Below, piece by piece: positions 2,957 through 29,057 of a stretch of 64,000 nucleotides of DNA (positions within the stretch are counted from its first letter, which is position 1; the number at the start of each line of letters is the position of its first letter). The translations under genes and the position numbers were made by a program. Origin of the DNA: Escherichia phage Killian. The stretch lies in sequence record OQ446694.1. The stretch is one strand, 5' to 3'. The notes under the pieces are model-generated. The model was not told the origin of the DNA. It saw only the letters and a list, made by a program, of their open reading frames with translations, and did not search any database.

Positions 2957-3970
2957 TCATTTATAATAACTTCGGTGGTTTTCAAGATATACCTCTTCAA
3001 CGAACTTGTCCCAGAACTTCATGTCTACCTTATCAGGCATACCGTTCTTAGCTGCCTGGATGGCTAGGACTTCAACCAAATCAACAGTATCTTCAAGAAG
3101 TTCTTGAACTTCTTTAAATGGTAATTCACCGGCTTTAATCAGCTTAATGATAGAGGCTTCGCGCAATGGGAACGCCAAATCACCTGTTTGGTAGATTTCC
3201 ATCAATTGATACCCTGCGCGATAAGCATGACTCAGAGCTTTCCAGTCAATACCTTCATTAGCTTCAGCCTTACGAGCACGTTCACCATATTCCGCATCGA
3301 GCTTATTCAGAGATTGCTTGAGCTCGATTAAAGACAAGGTGGTTTGGTACTTACGTCCAAGAACAGTATAGAACGTTTGAGGACCTGTTTTCTCGTGGTT
3401 ATGGAATACCCATTCACAGAACTCGTTTTCAGGAAGCCGATGTTTAATATCTACAATTTTAGTACGACGTTGTCCTTGTGTTCCATCTTCTCGGTAATCA
3501 ACCCACTGGTCAGGAATTTGATTAACTACTTTCAATACATCACGTAATGCGGCCAAACGAGAACCCTTAACACCATATTTAGAAGCTTGCTTGCGGACAT
3601 ATCCTAAATAGGATTTCATGTTAGTCGTATAAAACCGTGAACGATTGTCTTGAATAAACTTCCATACATCAGGCAAATCAGATTTAACTACTAGTTCAGG
3701 TGGAGTGTGGAGCATATCCAATGCTACAGTTTCACCATCTGCTGCTAATTTAAAGAAATATTTAAGACTGTATAGTTCATGGTCAATATCATCTTTAGTG
3801 TTTTTAGATGATGTGTTGTTAGTGTTTTTACTCATATGCTCTTTAACATTTCCGATAAGAATATCGCGAGCAGGAGGAACAAAGATTTCTTTAAAATCTA
3901 CATCAGATTCTGGAGTAGAAGTTCCATAAAGATGACTACCAAAATAGCTTTTCATTACTGTTTTCATCAT
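2957..3970 (-). CDS. Nucleotidyltransferase-fold protein (pol-beta-type GS...DxD signature)
   Basis: N-terminal YFGSHLYGTSTPESDVDFK matches the G-S-x(n)-D-x-D minimal nucleotidyltransferase signature; 337 aa. Confidence 0.65.
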   Translation of the reverse strand: MMKTVMKSYFGSHLYGTSTPESDVDFKEIFVPPARDILIGNVKEHMSKNTNNTSSKNTKDDIDHELYSLKYFFKLAADGETVALDMLHTPPELVVKSDLPDVWKFIQDNRSRFYTTNMKSYLGYVRKQASKYGVKGSRLAALRDVLKVVNQIPDQWVDYREDGTQGQRRTKIVDIKHRLPENEFCEWVFHNHEKTGPQTFYTVLGRKYQTTLSLIELKQSLNKLDAEYGERARKAEANEGIDWKALSHAYRAGYQLMEIYQTGDLAFPLREASIIKLIKAGELPFKEVQELLEDTVDLVEVLAIQAAKNGMPDKVDMKFWDKFVEEVYLENHRSYYK

Positions 3971-4440
3971 TCAGCCTTATATTCAATAACAGGACATACT
4001 TTAGCTTTACGAGCTTTTAAAAATTCGACGATAATAGATTTCTTGGGTTGAATAGGAGGTAAACCTTTATACGCCCTATCAATATTTTCTACATGTAAAG
4101 CATAATCCTTTTTCCATTTATAATCTTTATATTTTTCATGCAATTGTGCAGGAATAACAAATGAACCGATAATAAGTAAAACAAGCAAAATGGCAAGTAT
4201 AAATGCTGCTGGAATAAGAGTCCATAAACTACCAAAAATAAGCCATTTCTGTATGATTTCTGCACAGATGATAGTTAGACCTGCGAGTATAGTACATCCG
4301 AAAAAAGAAACGAAAAATGTAGGAATAACAATAGACCAAAAATACGCGCATAGTGTCTTAGGCCGTTTCCATTCATCATTAAACATTTTGAATAATTTAT
4401 AGTGCCAAGAGCTTTCATTAATAATCATAATTATAATCAT
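3967..4440 (-). CDS. Integral membrane protein (157 aa, 2-3 predicted TM helices)
   Basis: Long hydrophobic stretches (FWSIVIPTFFVSFFGCTILAGLTIICA; LIPAAFILAILLVLLIIGSFVIPA). Confidence 0.55.
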   Translation of the reverse strand: MIIIMIINESSWHYKLFKMFNDEWKRPKTLCAYFWSIVIPTFFVSFFGCTILAGLTIICAEIIQKWLIFGSLWTLIPAAFILAILLVLLIIGSFVIPAQLHEKYKDYKWKKDYALHVENIDRAYKGLPPIQPKKSIIVEFLKARKAKVCPVIEYKAE

Positions 4441-4958
4441 CCTTTCATTGAAGGTGTAACAGTTGTTAAATACTTAATCATAGCTTCAGCTTCTGATTTT
4501 GATAATGAAATTTCTCCATTGTTTTGACGAATAGAAATAAAATCTGGATGACGGTCACCACCAGCTTTCAAAACACACATATAAGTATCAGTTTCATCTT
4601 CAATATTTGAAATGATTGAAGCAGTTCCACATGAATGCGGTTTTTGATAAATCAATACGGCTTTTCTTCCACCGTTTGACTGTTCATAAACTTTTAACAC
4701 ATCAAACAAATCACTTCTTTTATCAATAGCTAAGATGTTGTTTTCATCTTCAATGTTAAATCCTTCGGATACTTCATAAAGTGTCACCCATAAATCACCT
4801 ATATCGATAGTAGCATTTTCCTTTCCATGACTTTCAAGAGTATGACAAATTTTCTTGATTTCGTCATAACTCATTTTAATAATATCATCTCCTTGAATAA
4901 GGAAGATGTCATTTTTAAATTCAACACGAATTAAACCACTTTCACTTGAAATAAACAT
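4437..4958 (-). CDS. Hypothetical protein (173 aa), paralog of the adjacent gene
   Basis: C-terminus SKSEAEAMIKYLTTVTPSMKG resembles C-terminus of 4965..5522. Confidence 0.55.
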   Translation of the reverse strand: MFISSESGLIRVEFKNDIFLIQGDDIIKMSYDEIKKICHTLESHGKENATIDIGDLWVTLYEVSEGFNIEDENNILAIDKRSDLFDVLKVYEQSNGGRKAVLIYQKPHSCGTASIISNIEDETDTYMCVLKAGGDRHPDFISIRQNNGEISLSKSEAEAMIKYLTTVTPSMKG

Positions 4959-4964
4959 ATTTCC

Positions 4965-5522
4965 TCACTTTGAAATCATAGTTGGAATGACAGAATCAAG
5001 ATAAGTCTTTAGCGCAATAGCTTCGTCTTTGGTAAATGTGACAATATGTGATCGAAAATCGTCAATTTGACGAATAGTTAAGACATCTCCCTCTTCATAA
5101 CATTTTGATACATTTAAAACAGTTTCATAATTTTGATTACAAGCGTTAGTAATAATAGCATTGCAATTTTTAAACCATTTTAAACTATGTTTTCTTTCAT
5201 TAGAATAATAAAAATATTTAATCTTATCTATAAAACTATCCCAATGGATAACTGATAAACACATTGACTCACTTTTAATATTAAATCCTGGGCATAAAGA
5301 ATAAAAATGAATTTTATGCTCATCATTAATGCTTACAATTTTATCAGTGTAAGGTTTTTCAATTTGGGTTAAATGAATAATTTCGCTAGGCGTAAAATAT
5401 AGCATATCGTCTTCTTGCGTCAAACGATACATATTATTTACTTTTTCTATAGCCAATTCACCAAAAAGTGAACTAACTTCTAGTACTAATCGTTTCATAT
5501 TGATTCTCTTCGACTCACTCAC
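4965..5522 (-). CDS. Hypothetical protein (185 aa), paralog of the adjacent gene; probable GTG start
   Basis: C-terminus TKDEAIALKTYLDSVIPTMISK; AAGGAG SD 9 nt upstream of GTG at 5522. Confidence 0.5.
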   Translation of the reverse strand: MSESKRINMKRLVLEVSSLFGELAIEKVNNMYRLTQEDDMLYFTPSEIIHLTQIEKPYTDKIVSINDEHKIHFYSLCPGFNIKSESMCLSVIHWDSFIDKIKYFYYSNERKHSLKWFKNCNAIITNACNQNYETVLNVSKCYEEGDVLTIRQIDDFRSHIVTFTKDEAIALKTYLDSVIPTMISK

Positions 5523-5657
5523 AATTACATACTCCTTTGAATAATATCAATAATGTTGTTTACCAGATTATAAGTAAACATTGGGTAATTATATTGAATC
5601 ATCACATACACAACAAACAAAACTTTCATTCTCTTCTCCTTGGCAGTTGACAAGATT

Positions 5658-5686
5658 ACTATACCATAACCTTGCCAACTTGTAAA
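5658..5686 (-). promoter_or_regulatory. Sigma70-type phage early promoter (GTTTACA-N17-TGGTATAGT)
   Basis: Cassette variant on minus strand. Confidence 0.6.
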
Positions 5687-5852
5687 CCATTAAATGACGT
5701 TTTCAATAAAATTCTGAAGCTTTGTGTGAGCATCAACCATGATTTTCATTTCTTCCTTTGCAAAAGCTGTACCTCTTTCACGAGAAGAATACTCATAGTC
5801 AGAAACTGCATTAGCGTATTCTTCAATTAGCTTCATTAAAAACATCTGCTTT

Positions 5853-6047
5853 TCAGTTTTCATTATTCCACCTAATCATTTCAAGATATTGAACTAACTT
5901 AGCTTTGGATTTATCCAAATCCTTTTTAGCTGCTTCTATACCATCGTATGAATATCCTTCACAATGCTCAACTGCCAATTGGTATGAATCTATTTCAATA
6001 TCACGTGCTAATTTAATGATTTTTTCAAACTGTTCACGTGTTAGCAT
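5853..6047 (-). CDS. Small hypothetical protein (64 aa)
   Basis: ORF track. Confidence 0.45.
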   Translation of the reverse strand: MLTREQFEKIIKLARDIEIDSYQLAVEHCEGYSYDGIEAAKKDLDKSKAKLVQYLEMIRWNNEN

Positions 6048-6049
6048 AC

Positions 6050-6253
6050 TTAAACTCTCGTATTATGATCGATAATTTCATCAAGAAACATATCTAAAGC
6101 TTCTACAGCATTATCAACTTTAGCTTCAAGTTCTTCAGCGCCTTTATTTGCAATGCCTGCCGAAAACCAAGCAAAGTCACTAAGTTCCTCATCTGCTTTG
6201 CGAATTAAAGCTACCAATTCTTTAATTTTATCTGCTTGTTCGATACTAATCAT
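6050..6253 (-). CDS. Small hypothetical acidic protein (67 aa)
   Basis: Start moved to internal ATG that overlaps the upstream stop (TAATG-type coupling). Confidence 0.45.
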   Translation of the reverse strand: MISIEQADKIKELVALIRKADEELSDFAWFSAGIANKGAEELEAKVDNAVEALDMFLDEIIDHNTRV

Positions 6254-6441
6254 TATTCCACCACATATGAAAGAGAGAATATTGCACACGCCATATGAGT
6301 TGCAGCTTCATCACACATATCATAACGTTTCTTAAGAAGTTCTACAAGTTCTTCACTTGTAACTTCATCCATGTCGACGAAAAAATCACCATTAATGATG
6401 ACGTAAATATTTCCTTCTTGATTAAGTGCTTCAATTTTCAT
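6253..6441 (-). CDS. Small hypothetical acidic protein (62 aa)
   Basis: Track start lies inside the promoter cassette; true start ATG at 6441 with GGAGAA SD. Confidence 0.45.
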
Positions 6442-7480: not shown

Positions 7481-8062
7481 CTAACCGAGCTTTTTAGTTA
7501 ATTCATTCCAATGTTTTCTGCACAAAGAAACATAAATTTCATCACCAATACAGATTTGATTACCTTCTTTAACTGGTGTTCCATCTTCCATTAATCGAGC
7601 CGTCATAATCGCTTTTTTACCGCAATGACAAACTGCCTTTAGTTCAATAAGTTTATCTGCAATCGCCAAAAGTTCTTTAGAACCTTCAAATAATTTTCCG
7701 GCGAAATCAGTCCTTAGACCATAAGCCATAACAGGAACATTATATGTATCAACAATTCGACTTAATTGATGCACCTGTCCAGTTTTTAAAAACTGGGCTT
7801 CATCTACAAATACACAATGAATATCTTTTTGTGCTTCAGCCCATTTATAGAACTCAAAAATATCCATATCATCCGTAATAATATTCGCTTCCTGCTTAAT
7901 TCCAATACGAGAAACGACTTCACAGACAGAATCGCGAGTATCAATAGCAGGCTTAAGAACTAATACACCCATTCCACGTTCTTTATAATTATGCGCAGCA
8001 GTCAAAAGAGAAGCAGATTTTCCAGCATTCATTGCTGCATAAGTAAAAATTAAACTCGCCAT
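7481..8062 (-). CDS. tk: Thymidine kinase
   Basis: 193 aa; P-loop AMNAGKS, CxxC...CxxC zinc ribbon near C-terminus; matches T4 Tk. Confidence 0.92.
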   Translation of the reverse strand: MASLIFTYAAMNAGKSASLLTAAHNYKERGMGVLVLKPAIDTRDSVCEVVSRIGIKQEANIITDDMDIFEFYKWAEAQKDIHCVFVDEAQFLKTGQVHQLSRIVDTYNVPVMAYGLRTDFAGKLFEGSKELLAIADKLIELKAVCHCGKKAIMTARLMEDGTPVKEGNQICIGDEIYVSLCRKHWNELTKKLG

Positions 8063-19241: not shown

Positions 19242-19318
<77 letters not shown>

Positions 19319-19321
19319 TAA

Positions 19322-19987
19322 TTAAAATTTCATTTTTCGACCTTTAAACCATCCTTCTGGAATTGGGTCAGTTTTCTTAATACGTTTAGAAACTTTTTCA
19401 TCTAATGAATGAATCCACATCATACCAAATTGGGAATTCTTTTCGCCCTGTTGATGTTTATTTCTGGCGTGAGATTCTTTCATTTTATTAATAGTTTCAG
19501 GAGTATGGGTCTTGCCCAAGAAAGATTTAGTATTTAAAAATTTCTCTCTATACTTAGGATTATCCCAAAGCTGTTTAAACCTTTCTGAACCCATTTTACG
19601 ATATTTTTCTTTAAGGTCTGGGTCGTTCTCAAATCTGGTTTTAAAAGCGGCAGCTCCTTTTAAGGAAGCTTCTTTCTTTTTATCCAAATATTCTTTAGTG
19701 TTTAAATGGTCCCAACCACCTTCACCACCTAATTTCAAATTATAAACATCAGGGCGCTTTAAAAACTCTTCAGTCACAATATTCTTTTCTGACTCAAACA
19801 TAGAGGTTTTATCGTCAAAGAACTCTAATATTTCTTTAGAAAAATTTTCTATACCATACTTATCTTGGGCTCTTTTTAATAATTTACCAGAACCCATATA
19901 TCCATCATCTAAATTTTCGGTAGAATGAGCGCCTATATAGATTTTATTATTAATTTTATTTGTTATTTTATAAATGTAATGGAACAT
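19322..19987 (-). CDS. segB: GIY-YIG homing endonuclease SegB
   Basis: 221 aa; N-terminal GIY-YIG motif (HYIYKITNKINNKIYIGAH); located between tRNA-Ile and tRNA-Arg as in T4. Confidence 0.85.
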   Translation of the reverse strand: MFHYIYKITNKINNKIYIGAHSTENLDDGYMGSGKLLKRAQDKYGIENFSKEILEFFDDKTSMFESEKNIVTEEFLKRPDVYNLKLGGEGGWDHLNTKEYLDKKKEASLKGAAAFKTRFENDPDLKEKYRKMGSERFKQLWDNPKYREKFLNTKSFLGKTHTPETINKMKESHARNKHQQGEKNSQFGMMWIHSLDEKVSKRIKKTDPIPEGWFKGRKMKF

Positions 19988-20018
19988 AAATATCTCCTAT
20001 TTCTAAGAGTATTTATGT

Positions 20019-20090
20019 TCCCAAAATATGGCCCTGGGTGGAATTGAACCACCATCTGGCGATTATGAGTCGCTTGCTTGAACCTTCCAG
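20019..20090 (-). tRNA. tRNA-Ile (anticodon CAU; T4 tRNA-Ile homolog, often auto-called tRNA-Met)
   Basis: Manual fold: acceptor GGCCCTG/CAGGGCC, anticodon loop CTCATAA, T-loop GGTTCAATTCC. Confidence 0.75.
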
Positions 20091-20096
20091 CTACAG

Positions 20097-20169
20097 GGCC
20101 TTGATATGCTGATTGACGGAATCGAACCGCCGACATCCTCATTACAAGTGAGGTGCTCTACCTACTGAG
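20097..20169 (-). tRNA. tRNA-Thr (anticodon UGU)
   Basis: Manual fold: acceptor GCTGATT/AATCAGC, anticodon loop CTTGTAA, T-loop GGTTCGATTCC. Confidence 0.8.
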
Positions 20170-20176
20170 CTAAATC

Positions 20177-20263
20177 AGCGAAATTACGGAGGCGATAGGA
20201 TTTGAACCTATGAGTCGCCGGAGCGACTGCCGGTTTTCAAGACCGGTGCATTAAACCACTCTG
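20177..20263 (-). tRNA. tRNA-Ser (anticodon UGA), type II with long variable arm
   Basis: Manual fold: acceptor GGAGGCG/CGCCTCC, anticodon loop CTTGAAA, variable arm GTCGCTCCGGCGACT. Confidence 0.8.
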
Positions 20264-20265
20264 CC

Positions 20266-20339
20266 ACGCCTCCAGTCTCCGCGGCAGGATTTGAACCTGC
20301 GACATTCTGCTCCCAAAGCAGACGCTCTACCAAACTGAG
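20266..20339 (-). tRNA. tRNA-Pro (anticodon UGG)
   Basis: Manual fold: anticodon stem CTGCT/AGCAG with loop TTTGGGA; 2 nt from tRNA-Ser (dimeric precursor arrangement). Confidence 0.8.
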
Positions 20340-20352
20340 CTACACGGAGTAA

Positions 20353-20516
<164 letters not shown>

Positions 20517-20532
20517 CCATTCTCGCTCTATA

Positions 20533-25431: not shown

Positions 25432-26256
25432 TTAGATATTTGACCAGACTTTGTTTGCAGAGAAACGTTTTCCTTTTGAAACGAACTGCTGAAGTGGCAT
25501 TAATACAACGTTCGCCCAGTCTTTCGGGGCGATTTCAACTAGGCTACCCATAATATTACCAGGTATATATGCCTTAATCATTTGGTCTGCACCCCTAAAT
25601 CCTTTCACTTGACTCCAATCAATTTTTAATTTCGTTTTATTAGTAATAGTAGGTGTATTTGAATATTGCTTTAAAAGCTCTTCTAGAAATTGCTGACGAG
25701 CTTTAGGTGGAATATAGTGCAAGTTCAATCCATACATTAAATTATGTTTACCTAAACCGAGGTAAATTATCAAAGGAAATTTATCCCAATAAGGAAGAGT
25801 TTCTTTGTGTTTAGCATCATAAGCAAAAGCATATATTCGTCCCGGCTGCGGGCGAACAACCTTATGTCCTTTTACTTGCTTAATAGTTTCAGCAAACCAC
25901 TTTCTGGTTTTATTATTAATTGCTGCACCTTCATTACGAATTTTATCACGCAATGTTTGCCTGAATGAATTTATCATAAGCAGTTGTCTTTCTTGCTTAT
26001 TGAGTTTATTCATTGGTTTTGATTCAAGCTTTTGAATCTTTTCAGCTGTTTTAATTCCTGAAGCATATTTTGACATTGCTGAAGTAAACGTAGAGTATTT
26101 GATTCCTCTTTCTTCAGCAAATTGCTTTCCTGTCATTCCTTTTGCTTTGGCCTTTTTGTATTCAAGACCTATCTGAATCCATTTCTTTTCGTTTAATGAT
26201 TGCTTAACCTTTGGAACTTGGGGAGTGCTTTCATTAATTATTTGAAAAATAGCCAT
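25432..26256 (-). CDS. 2: gp2 DNA-end protector protein
   Basis: 274 aa; size, order and sequence consistent with T4 gp2. Confidence 0.9.
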
Positions 26257-26708
26257 TATGCCCCCTTAAAGCCAAGAGCTCGTAATCCATCTTCTGTTAA
26301 AATTCTAAATTTTATTCCACGCTTTTCAGCTAAAGCTTGTGCTGCTTTCCATTTGTCAGTATTAACGGAATATGTATAAATTTCATTCATAAATCTTTTC
26401 TTCGCTGCAGTTGTTAGATGTGCTGGTTTAACTGGTGGTTGTGTTTCTTTTTTAGGTTTTATTTCAATAAAAAATTCTTGTCCAGAAGAATCTTTCATCC
26501 AAATATCCATGAAGTATCTACGTTTTTTCCCTTCTGCATTACAAAAATAAGGAATTACTGCCGTTTCACTACCCCATGCAATAATTTCTGGATTTTTATC
26601 TAACCATTCAAAAAAGAATTTTTCCCAATTTGATCTATACGTAATTTTTTTAGGGTCACCTCTATATTTTGATATATTTTTAGGAACCCATTTTCCAGAA
26701 TATGCCAT
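26256..26708 (-). CDS. 4: gp4 head-completion protein
   Basis: 150 aa; stop overlaps gp2 start. Confidence 0.9.
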
Positions 26709-26719
26709 TGGATTCTCCT

Positions 26720-26727
26720 TATAAATA
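26720..26727 (+). promoter_or_regulatory. Late promoter (TATAAATA) for gene 53
   Basis: Exact TATAAATA about 29 nt upstream of ATG 26756. Confidence 0.7.
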
Positions 26728-26734
26728 GATAATA

Positions 26735-26742
26735 TATTTATA
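26735..26742 (-). promoter_or_regulatory. Late promoter (TATAAATA) for gene 4, divergent from the gene 53 promoter
   Basis: Plus-strand tatttata, i.e. TATAAATA on minus strand, 27 nt upstream of gene 4 ATG. Confidence 0.65.
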
Positions 26743-26755
26743 AACAGGAGGGCCC

Positions 26756-27346
26756 ATGCTCTTTACATTTTTTGATCCGATTGAATATGCGGCCAAAACG
26801 GTGAATAAAAACGCGCCGACTATTCCTATGACAGATATTTTTAGAAACTATAAAGACTATTTCAAACGTGCTCTTGCGGGATACCGCTTACGTACTTATT
26901 ATATTAAAGGTTCACCGCGCCCGGAAGAATTAGCAAATGCTATATATGGAAATCCGCAGTTGTATTGGGTTTTATTGATGTGTAATGATAATTATGATCC
27001 GTATTATGGATGGATTACTTCGCAAGAAGCTGCTTATCAAGCATCTATACAAAAATACAAAAACGTAGGTGGAGACCAAATAGTATATCATGTGAATGAG
27101 AACGGTGAAAAATTTTATAATTTAATATCATACGATGATAATCCATATGTTTGGTATGACAAAGGCGATAAAGCTAGAAAATATCCTCAATATGAAGGAG
27201 CACTTGCTGCGGTCGATACGTATGAAGCTGCTGTTCTTGAAAATGAAAAACTTCGTCAAATAAAAATAATAGCAAAATCAGACATCAATTCATTTATGAA
27301 CGACCTTATACGTATAATGGAGAAATCTTATGGAAATGATAAGTAA
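26756..27346 (+). CDS. 53: gp53 baseplate wedge subunit
   Basis: 196 aa; order and sequence as T4. Confidence 0.92.
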   Translation: MLFTFFDPIEYAAKTVNKNAPTIPMTDIFRNYKDYFKRALAGYRLRTYYIKGSPRPEELANAIYGNPQLYWVLLMCNDNYDPYYGWITSQEAAYQASIQKYKNVGGDQIVYHVNENGEKFYNLISYDDNPYVWYDKGDKARKYPQYEGALAAVDTYEAAVLENEKLRQIKIIAKSDINSFMNDLIRIMEKSYGNDK

Positions 27347-29057
27347 TAACCTTAATTGGTTTGTTGGTGTTGTTGAAGATAGAATGGACCCATTAAAATT
27401 AGGTCGTGTTCGTGTTCGTGTGGTTGGTCTGCATCCACCTCAAAGAGCACAAGGCGATGTAATGGGTATTCCAACTGATAAATTACCGTGGATGTCAGTT
27501 ATTCAACCTATAACTTCTGCAGCAATGTCTGGAATTGGAGGCTCCGTTACTGGTCCGGTAGAAGGAACTAGAGTCTATGGTCATTTTTTAGACAAATGGA
27601 AAACTAACGGAATTGTCCTTGGCACGTATGGTGGAATAGTTCGCGAAAAACCTAATAGACTTGAAGGATTTTCTGATCCGACTGGACAGTATCCTAGACG
27701 TCTAGGAAATGATACTAACGTATTAAACCAAGGCGGAGAAGTAGGATATGATTCGTCTTCTAATATTATCCAAGATAGCAATCTAGACACTGCGATAAAT
27801 CCTGATGATAGACCACTATCAGAGATTCCAACTGATGATAATCCAAATATGTCAATGGCTGAAATGCTTCGCCGCGATGAAGGATTAAGACTAAAAGTTT
27901 ATTGGGATACTGAAGGATATCCGACAATTGGTATTGGTCATCTTATCATGAAGCAGCCAGTTCGTGATATGACCCAAATTAATAAAGTTTTATCAAAACA
28001 AGTTGGTCGTGAAATTACCGGAAATCCAGGTTCTATTACAATGGAAGAAGCGGTAACTTTATTTGAACGTGATTTGGCTGATATGCAACGTGACATTAAA
28101 TCACATTCTAAAGTTGGCCCAGTTTGGCAAGCAGTTAATCGTTCTCGTCAAATGGCATTAGAAAATATGGCATTTCAGATGGGCGTTGGCGGTGTAGCTA
28201 AATTTAACACAATGTTAACTGCTATGTTAGCCGGAGATTGGGAAAAGGCATATAAAGCTGGTCGTGATTCATTGTGGTATCAACAAACAAAAGGCCGTGC
28301 ATCTCGTGTTACCATGATTATTCTTACAGGTAATTTGGAATCATACGGTATTGAAGTGAAAACACCGTCTAGGTCTTTGTCAGCAATGGCTGCTACTGTA
28401 GCAAAGTCTTCTGATCCAGCTGATCCTCCTATTCCGAATGATTCGAGAATTTTATTTAAAGAACCTGTTTCTTCATATAAAGGTGAATATCCGTATGTTC
28501 ACACGATGGAAACTGAAAGCGGTCATATTCAGGAATTTGATGATACCCCTGGGCAAGAACGATACAGATTAATTCATCCGACTGGAACATATGAGGAAGT
28601 ATCACCCTCAGGAAGAAGAACAAGAAAAACTGTTGATAATTTGTATGATATAACAAATGCTGATGGTAATTTTTTGGTAGCCGGTGATAAAAAGACTAAC
28701 GTCGGTGGGTCAGAAATTTATTACAACATGGATAATCGTCTCCACCAAATAGATGGAAGCAATACAATATTTGTACGTGGCGATGAAACTAAGACGGTTG
28801 AAGGTAATGGAACTATCTTAGTCAAAGGTAATGTTACTATTGTAGTTGAAGGTAATGCTGACATTACAGTTAAAGGAGATGCTACCACTTTAGTTGAAGG
28901 AAACCAGACTAATACAGTAAATGGAAATCTTTCTTGGAAAGTTGCTGGGACAGTTGATTGGGACGTTGGTGGTGATTGGACGGAAAAAATGGCATCTATG
29001 AGCTCTATTTCATCTGGTCAATACACAATTGATGGATCGAGGATTGACATTGGCTAA
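27330..29057 (+). CDS. 5: gp5 baseplate hub / cell-puncturing spike with lysozyme domain
   Basis: 575 aa; MEMISNNLNWFVGVVEDRMDPLKLGRVRVRV...; internal T4-lysozyme-like domain (MAEMLRRDEGLRLKVYWDTEGYPTIGIGH); C-terminal VxGxxxxx beta-helix repeats. Confidence 0.97.
   Translation: MEMISNNLNWFVGVVEDRMDPLKLGRVRVRVVGLHPPQRAQGDVMGIPTDKLPWMSVIQPITSAAMSGIGGSVTGPVEGTRVYGHFLDKWKTNGIVLGTYGGIVREKPNRLEGFSDPTGQYPRRLGNDTNVLNQGGEVGYDSSSNIIQDSNLDTAINPDDRPLSEIPTDDNPNMSMAEMLRRDEGLRLKVYWDTEGYPTIGIGHLIMKQPVRDMTQINKVLSKQVGREITGNPGSITMEEAVTLFERDLADMQRDIKSHSKVGPVWQAVNRSRQMALENMAFQMGVGGVAKFNTMLTAMLAGDWEKAYKAGRDSLWYQQTKGRASRVTMIILTGNLESYGIEVKTPSRSLSAMAATVAKSSDPADPPIPNDSRILFKEPVSSYKGEYPYVHTMETESGHIQEFDDTPGQERYRLIHPTGTYEEVSPSGRRTRKTVDNLYDITNADGNFLVAGDKKTNVGGSEIYYNMDNRLHQIDGSNTIFVRGDETKTVEGNGTILVKGNVTIVVEGNADITVKGDATTLVEGNQTNTVNGNLSWKVAGTVDWDVGGDWTEKMASMSSISSGQYTIDGSRIDIG

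Follow-up and report, generated by a model that had tools for sequence, protein, structure and literature searches.

The closest described relative of the genes considered here is mobD.1 of phage T4 (Y05I_BPT4, UniProt P39240), whose protein belongs to a cluster named 'MobD.1 conserved hypothetical protein' as well as 'Uncharacterized 21.1 kDa protein in mobD-ri intergenic region'. Because T4 has just one member of the family, we infer that MobD.1 is the 'y05I' behind the Pfam names T4_y05I_N and T4_y05I_C. In T4 the gene lies between mobD.2-type small genes and nrdC.11, as a single copy followed by the HNH endonuclease gene mobD; the 'mob' names of T4 denote its mobile HNH homing endonucleases, mobA-E (PMC2988022). 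A literature search found no functional data on mobD.1/y05I, its sole mention being in a table of a review of T4 mobile elements, where mobD.1 is listed as flanking mobD. The family and the gene pair are already annotated in Pfam, in PHROGs and, as mobD.1 and mobD.1a, in phage records, and tandem paralogs as such are already known.

At the level of fold, the described systems that invite comparison are PC4-like proteins. Pur-alpha is the sole known protein to combine a type I (intramolecular) with a type II (intermolecular) PC4-like domain (PMC7549692); its repeats I and II make up the binding domain, while repeat III mediates dimerisation, possibly including that of Pur-alpha/Pur-beta heterodimers (PMC7549692; PMC4764581). 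Whirly proteins (p24/PBF-2, StWhy2) and the trypanosome MRP1/MRP2 proteins are tetramers or heterotetramers that bind ssDNA or guide RNA, SsgA-like proteins (PDB 3cm1) are actinomycete cell-division proteins, and PC4, Sub1, YdbC and the PC4-like protein of phage T5 are single-repeat proteins that form type II dimers.

The window analysed here, 64,000 nucleotides of Escherichia phage Killian (OQ446694.1), belongs to a Tequatrovirus (T4-like) genome, and the 2.2-kb stretch around the gene pair is 97–99% identical by megablast to Escherichia phages EcNP1, Nami and HY01 and to hundreds more. All genes in this AT-rich part of the window (30% GC) are carried on the minus strand in the order of the T4 early region: tk, rI.1, rI, rI.-1, DUF7438 genes, the 185-aa gene, the 173-aa gene, a membrane-protein gene and nrdC.11 (Table 1). 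The pair thus occupies the early-region position between rI/mobD.2-type genes and nrdC.11, a layout shared by ime09, T4 and JS09. Just upstream of it, the three DUF7438 genes form another small paralog array.

Table 1. Features of the mobD.1 locus in the window, listed in the direction of transcription.
Feature	Position	Strand	Remarks
tk	7481..8062	-	
Promoter-like site TTTACA-17-TATAGT, extended -10 TG	5658..5686	-	Consensus scan, 10/12 matches
34-aa ORF (MKVLFVVYVMIQ...)	5525..5629	-	AAGGAG Shine-Dalgarno; within a 42-aa mechanical ORF
185-aa gene, T4 mobD.1 ortholog (mobD.1a in ime09)	4965..5522	-	GTG start
N-terminal domain of 185-aa protein, residues 12-108	5199..5489	-	Two beta4-alpha repeats, predicted intramolecular PUR/Whirly-like (type I PC4-like)
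C-terminal domain of 185-aa protein, residues 113-182	4977..5186	-	Third beta-strands-plus-helix repeat; ends YLxxVIPTM; PF24448 E=4.4e-21
173-aa paralog (mobD.1 in ime09)	4437..4958	-	Absent from T4
N-terminal PUR-like domain of 173-aa protein, residues 2-95	4674..4955	-	Strongly acidic, pI about 4.4
C-terminal domain of 173-aa protein, residues 102-171	4446..4655	-	PF24448; ends ...YLTTVTPSMKG
157-aa membrane protein, RB69ORF104c type, PHROG 944	3967..4440	-	
nrdC.11 nucleotidyltransferase	2957..3970	-	

The two ORFs, which lie where the sequence-only reading had placed them and end in the sequences that it quoted, are paralogs within the T4 MobD.1 (Y05I) family that are homologous over their full length and diverged long ago. 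That reading was correct in calling them tandem paralogs, as the two proteins share both Pfam domains and their PHROG. T4_y05I_N (PF24449) scored 111.7 bits (E=2.9e-32) against the 173-aa protein and 131.8 bits (E=1.6e-38) against the 185-aa protein, with a gathering score of 24.9 bits; T4_y05I_C (PF24448), which follows it on the C-terminal side, scored 82.9 bits (residues 102–171) and 75.4 bits (residues 113–182), respectively, with a gathering score of 27 bits; and PHROG 1502 was matched end to end (E=2.9e-66 and 3.2e-81). With 86% identity to T4 MobD.1 (tblastn) and the same position in the genome, the 185-aa gene is, on sequence grounds, the ortholog of T4 mobD.1. Both domains of MobD.1 recur, in like order, in the 173-aa protein, which is, however, more acidic and only about 26% identical to it. 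Killian also differs from T4 in having two family genes followed by the membrane-protein gene.

Structure prediction gave models of uneven confidence for the two proteins. For the 185-aa protein (AF2, 12-sequence alignment), pLDDT was about 90–95 over residues 10–110 of the N-terminal domain and about 48 in the C-terminal domain; for the 173-aa protein, whose 26-sequence alignment took in stand-alone C-domain proteins, mean pLDDT was 85, with 64–89 over a C-terminal domain of five strands and a helix. Both predicted models have the topology β4-α, β4-α, then four or five strands and a long helix, and fall within the PC4-like/PUR/Whirly structural class. With hhalign, repeat I was related to the C-terminal domain at 93.8% probability (E=1.8e-7), ...LTQEDD-x-LYFTPSEI... 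being aligned with ...IRQIDD-x-VTFTKDEA..., and the N- and C-domain profiles cross-matched in HMMER; comparisons of repeat I with II, and of repeat II with the C-terminal domain, gave no sequence signal in hhalign. Based on this relation between repeat I and the C-terminal domain, the protein is best described as three PUR-type repeats. Each of the two proteins is predicted to consist of three β-β-β-β-α repeats, of which I and II would pack as an intramolecular PUR/Whirly-like (type I PC4-like) domain, and, judging from the models, Pur-alpha's domain plan appears to be reproduced in the MobD.1 family.

The resemblance is one of architecture. The phage proteins differ from Pur-alpha (PDB 3k44, 5fgp, 5fgo) in sequence, with 5–12% identity, and in being acidic. 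Neither matched the PurA, Whirly or PC4 families of Pfam at E≤1, and neither belongs to the PUR family by sequence. The Pur-alpha contact motif K-x-N-x-R plus Phe (KNR/F; PMC4764581) is absent from both proteins and from the family alignments; the conserved motif of repeat II in the family is G-F-N-I-(E/K)-x-E. Whirly proteins, MRP1/MRP2 and SsgA-like proteins, in turn, lack a third repeat and show no similarity in sequence to the phage proteins. A profile built from the family alignment and run against PDB sequences gave CsoS1D at E=0.94, a chance match only. A BFVD fold search returned mostly family members, together with weak matches to uncharacterised Bacillus-phage proteins, and was uninformative on function.

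The family is genuinely small. Word-indexed protein searches found close relatives only, and an exhaustive profile search across 1.84 billion representatives turned up only 29 clusters (50% identity), comprising six of full-length proteins, about fifteen of stand-alone C-domain proteins (65–87 aa) and some fragments. Columns conserved across all clusters lie in the C-terminal domain (Q152, E167, Y174, L175, V178, P180 and M182), and the motif of this domain, ...I-x-Q...(T/S)K-x-EA-x-AL-x-x-YL-x-x-V-I-P-(T/S)-M, is what had caught attention at the two C-termini in the sequence-only reading. Klebsiella T4-like phages (Potts1 and relatives) have only an 83-aa C-domain protein in the syntenic slot, after a Phage_tudor gene, and at the loci examined the free-standing C-domain gene always adjoins the same membrane-protein gene. 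PC4 and Borrelia Pur-alpha likewise exist as lone repeats.

The arrangement of the genes suggests that they are expressed together. The promoter-like site, which precedes all four ORFs from the 34-aa one to the membrane-protein gene, is consistent with a T4 early promoter. The 34-aa ORF, a probable leader gene, stops 3 nt ahead of the GTG that opens the 185-aa gene; a gap of 6 nt lies between that gene and the 173-aa gene, with a GAGG overlapping the stop codon; and the start codon of the membrane-protein gene overlaps the stop codon of the 173-aa gene (ATGA). On this spacing, the four look like one early transcription unit. Within the 185-aa gene, a hairpin resembling a terminator (5073..5059) was put down to chance.

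In every locus examined but that of T4, the gene directly after the last family gene encodes a homolog of the membrane protein. Its identity to the Killian protein is 52–56% in Mosigvirus and in metagenomic contigs that carry a hybrid family gene (P0021, described below), 29–34% in Dhaka/Gapriver-like phages and 27–29% in Klebsiella phages, while the neighbouring nrdC.11 stays 71–89% identical across the same loci. This conserved adjacency, set against the identities of nrdC.11, indicates that the membrane-protein gene accompanies the family gene and that both diverge at similarly high rates, and adjacency is kept even where the family proteins share just 28–33% identity. Because gene order in T4-like phages is conserved in general, the adjacency hints only weakly at functional coupling. 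The membrane protein ends in a basic, presumably cytoplasmic tail, with a charge of about +6 over the last 57 residues.

Taking these observations together, we consider it probable that the two genes encode diverged MobD.1 paralogs with a three-repeat PUR-like fold, acting as dimeric, non-enzymatic binding proteins. By analogy with Pur-alpha, proteins of the MobD.1 family would dimerise through the conserved C-terminal repeat and would bind their ligand without catalysis; where both genes are present, homodimers, heterodimers or both might form, as proposed for Pur-alpha/Pur-beta. Dimerisation through the C-terminal repeat would explain why the C-termini are the most conserved part of these proteins, why lone C-domains occur and how the paralogs might come to pair. 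As for the ligand, the predicted fold points to single-stranded nucleic acid. The proteins might accordingly resemble Pur-alpha, Whirly or PC4 as regulators that bind ssDNA or RNA, with the β-sheet faces of repeats I and II binding or melting nucleic acid early in infection; the Pfam label is 'putative transcription factor'. Simple nucleic-acid binding sits poorly, however, with the acidity of all family members (net charge −4 to −26), and the family alignments contain no conserved basic patch; we regard this alternative as possible but unlikely. Acidity combined with the absent KNR/F motif leads us to rate a basic protein partner likelier than nucleic acid. A dimeric acidic module that binds such a partner would be the more likely mode, one that we favour tentatively and credit with slightly less than an even chance. 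Candidate partners would be a nucleic-acid-binding protein of the host or, alternatively, the presumably co-transcribed membrane protein through its basic tail. Should the proteins prove to bind a host protein and not nucleic acid, phages would have put the PC4-like fold to a new use.

A more far-reaching version of the protein-binding proposal can be formulated, which we consider distinctly improbable. The family would be a phage counterpart of the type I plus type II architecture of Pur-alpha, adapted as an acidic protein-binding or nucleic-acid-mimicking module; the paralogs would heterodimerise through their C-terminal repeats and, with the co-located and equally fast-evolving membrane protein, would make up an early module of two or three components, serving for instance in exclusion or counter-defence, that was lost in T4 to mobD. 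The models in themselves offer a hypothesis of structure (PUR/PC4-like, three repeats, acidic) where a family of T4 early genes has been without a function for decades.

The locus varies considerably among relatives. The 185-aa type, in any allele, was found by tblastn in 728 phage records, and the 173-aa type, at ≥80% identity, in about 433. Whether homologs occur singly in related phages had been put forward as a check, and they do: in T4, in Mosigvirus JS09 and in eight other T4-like loci (~155–172-kb, IMG/VR), where the proteins are 31–36% identical to the 185-aa type; the IMG/VR scan for the family yielded only 14 loci. In T4 the slot after mobD.1 is taken by the HNH homing endonuclease gene mobD, which replaces both the 173-aa gene and the membrane-protein gene. 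The mobD arrangement is present in 47 of the 504 records that match the T4 flanks; the remaining records match the flanks only, and those sampled carry a different insert of roughly 1 kb between them. From these counts and the differing insert it follows that the pair plus the membrane-protein gene is the common state in Tequatrovirus, with T4 a minority variant. T4 keeps MobD.1 without the membrane protein.

Two further variants add to this picture. In T2, indels split each paralog into three reading frames, leaving pseudogenes, and two independent T2 records are 100% identical over the region. In six metagenomic contigs, the hybrid gene P0021 joins an N-terminal part of the 185-aa type to a C-terminal part of the 173-aa type, with the junction falling between ...NDET and DTYMC..., and the membrane-protein gene follows it directly; to judge from the sequence on either side of the junction, P0021 evidently represents a deletion by recombination between the two copies. 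Since both genes are pseudogenes in T2, and the 173-aa copy has been lost to the mobD homing endonuclease in T4, both are dispensable for growth in at least some backgrounds. That T2 does without these genes, and T4 partly so, is in line with an accessory role that depends on conditions. This single locus thereby offers a natural series, from tandem pair through hybrid gene and T2 pseudogenes to replacement by mobD in T4, that shows turnover in the plastic regions of T4-like genomes. Tandem paralogs are real here but ordinary for such regions; the new points are secondary and partly predictive, namely the Pur-alpha-like architecture, the acidity, the stand-alone C-domain, the constant membrane partner, the deep split and the series of hybrid, pseudogenes and replacement.

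The age of the split was approached with a neighbour-joining tree of 18 full-length members, rooted at the midpoint and bootstrapped 60 times. The 173-aa type formed its own clade (60/60 bootstraps), as did the Tequatrovirus and Mosigvirus-type MobD.1 proteins together (60/60), and the 173-aa clade fell outside the grouping of Tequatrovirus, Mosigvirus and Dhakavirus/Gaprivervirus-like MobD.1 orthologs; a sister relationship of the 173-aa type to the Tequatrovirus 185-aa type was recovered in 0/60 bootstraps. The split may thus reach back to these genera or beyond them, other lineages having lost the gene; or else the second copy may have come in laterally or may have evolved much faster in an early burst after duplication, a provisional reading, as the tree is a neighbour-joining one with a midpoint root, the sequences are short and divergent, and long-branch effects are possible. 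In informative pairs, dN/dS was 0.08–0.33 for the 185-aa type and 0.05–0.17 for the 173-aa type, values that mark both as real genes under purifying selection.

These results bear on the proposal, made in the sequence-only reading, of a local gene duplication followed by divergence: the paralogy stands, while a local duplication finds only partial support. That the pair arose by a recent duplication within Tequatrovirus and diverged quickly under an arms race would be in keeping with two genes that are adjacent, co-oriented and 6 nt apart, with other small paralog arrays in the region (the DUF7438 genes, for example) and with the recombination between copies to which the hybrid gene attests. 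Yet the 185-aa protein is 44–51% identical to its Mosigvirus-type and 31–36% identical to its Dhaka/Gapriver-like counterparts, as against only 26% to its 173-aa neighbour (23–27% across the comparisons of the two), and the 173-type clade never joins the Tequatrovirus 185-type. The low dN/dS of both genes gives no sign of ongoing rapid divergence, and RB27 and Sf22 pair the 173-type gene with a 47%-identity allele of the upstream gene. We therefore judge a recent duplication very improbable.

The similarity between the two proteins was itself examined by pairwise alignment. In BLASTP, residues 3–171 of the 173-aa protein aligned with residues 16–182 of the 185-aa protein (40/174 identities, 23%; 48% positives; E=3e-10). 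Their Smith-Waterman score was 108, compared with 31.6 ± 5.3 in 2000 shuffles of one partner that preserved composition (z=14.5), and none of the 2000 shuffles reached 108. Each half was significant by itself in the same kind of test (z=9.4 for the N-terminal and z=6.1 for the C-terminal halves), while cross-domain comparisons of N- with C-terminal halves stayed at background level. The similarity spans the full length and, by score, is greater in the N-terminal domain than at the C-termini, so that the sequence-only observation, though confirmed, had understated the similarity. A shared central Cys-containing segment, also proposed from the sequence, did not hold up: the cysteines fall in different alignment columns, and the family alignments contain no invariant or near-invariant Cys. 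The idea that the similarity reflects chance or composition and is limited to a few residues, or that one ORF is not a real gene, could draw on the AT-rich sequence (30% GC), which inflates both ORF length and compositional similarity, but it has a negligible chance of being right given the shuffle test, independent Pfam matches far above gathering thresholds for both ORFs, and the conservation of both, across phage genomes in their hundreds, at dN/dS values far under 1.

Annotation of the pair can be settled as MobD.1-family paralogs, neither molybdopterin-cofactor proteins nor receptor-type host-interaction genes. Their suggested place among phage host-interaction genes is unsupported in the receptor-binding sense, these being early-region cytoplasmic proteins encoded between tk/rI and nrdC.11. 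Many RefSeq phage records and WP_ entries name the 185-aa protein 'MobD', a molybdopterin-guanine dinucleotide biosynthesis protein, an identity whose probability is practically nil, as the protein matched no Mob (MobA/MobB) or molybdopterin family in Pfam (E≤1) or NCBIfam (E≤0.01). With T4 'mob' nomenclature referring to homing endonucleases, the best explanation of the molybdopterin label is that a name was transferred from the mobD.1 locus tag. NCBIfam gave no match of any kind for either paralog or for the membrane protein. Database entries for the 185-aa ORF differ also in length, since an in-frame alternative ATG at 5498 yields a 177-aa form that is common in databases.

The mobD homing endonuclease gene of T4 (comparison locus L002:4106-4885) fills the slot that, in the window (3967..4958), holds both the 173-aa paralog of the MobD.1 pair and a 157-aa membrane-protein gene. 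Because the endonuclease gene stands where two genes would otherwise lie, and because just 47 of the 504 Tequatrovirus records that match share the T4 arrangement, mobD appears to have taken the place of genes already present instead of inserting between them.

The membrane-protein gene is otherwise a constant neighbour, lying directly 3' of the last MobD.1-family gene in all loci but T4 (the window and comparison loci L004 and L008-L021), an adjacency that persists down to 27–29% protein identity in Klebsiella phages. Its product, for which Pfam gave no match, has a basic C-terminal tail that closes with a conserved C-x-x-IE(Y/F)K motif; the membrane protein and the acidic MobD.1 proteins may be functionally linked. 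In one Klebsiella T4-like phage (L016), the gene flanks a stand-alone T4_y05I_C gene, encoding only the C-terminal domain of the family, with a Phage_tudor gene on the other side, and no N-domain lies nearby. About fifteen clusters of stand-alone T4_y05I_C proteins (65–87 aa) occur in metagenomes.

Features of the window and comparison loci
Feature	Coordinates	Strand	Remarks
157-aa membrane-protein gene	3967..4440	minus	PHROG 944
34-aa ORF (MKVLFVVYVMIQYNYPMF...)	5525..5629	minus	AAGGAG Shine-Dalgarno sequence
DUF7438 gene	5690..5863	minus	Pfam DUF7438 match, E about 1e-16
DUF7438 gene	5853..6047	minus	Pfam DUF7438 match, E about 1e-16
DUF7438 gene	6050..6289	minus	Pfam DUF7438 match, E about 1e-16
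tRNA cluster, seven genes (Arg, Met/CAU, Thr, Ser, Pro, Gly, Leu)	19242..20526	minus	
P0021 hybrid gene, 179 aa	L019:3001-3540		Logan metagenome contigs L019-L022
Stand-alone T4_y05I_C protein, 84 aa	L016:3872-4126		Klebsiella T4-like phage, 99% identical to Potts1

The pair itself also varies in other ways. Six contigs carry, in place of the tandem genes and with the membrane-protein gene coming after it, a single hybrid (P0021) that corresponds to the 185-aa type in its N-terminal part and to the 173-aa type in its C-terminal part, with the junction at ...NDET|DTYMC...; it looks as if the paralogs recombined at a short common stretch, deleting the DNA between. In phage T2, each paralog is broken by indels into three reading frames (L003:2416-3516, PV958097.1; L023, AP018813.1), the alignment of the region to the window showing 92% DNA identity and four gap openings. 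Over 1131 nt, both T2 records agree at 100% identity. The fragments are annotated as unrelated products, for example 'prohead core scaffold protein' or 'integrase/recombinase'.

Naming also appears to be at fault for intact genes. RefSeq phage records matching 4965..5522 (e.g. NC_054910.1, NC_019503.1) name the MobD.1 ortholog 'molybdopterin-guanine dinucleotide biosynthesis protein MobD', and the name has spread to WP_ entries labelled bacterial. No Pfam or NCBIfam profile supports this label, which appears to be an annotation error originating from the T4 locus name.

Upstream, the 34-aa ORF has many hydrophobic and aromatic residues and is left unannotated in ime09. It follows closely on a promoter-like site, and only 3 nt separate its end from the GTG of the 185-aa gene. 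Immediately 5' of the MobD.1 pair lies another tandem array of paralogs, made up of three consecutive DUF7438 genes (57, 64 and about 67–79 aa); four or five copies are present in related loci.

Elsewhere in the window, about 700 nt separate the Arg tRNA gene from the other six of its cluster. T4 has eight tRNAs, Gln among them; no Gln tRNA was called in the window. GC skew turns from negative to positive at about 26000..28000, consistent with the changeover from early genes on the minus strand to late genes on the plus strand.
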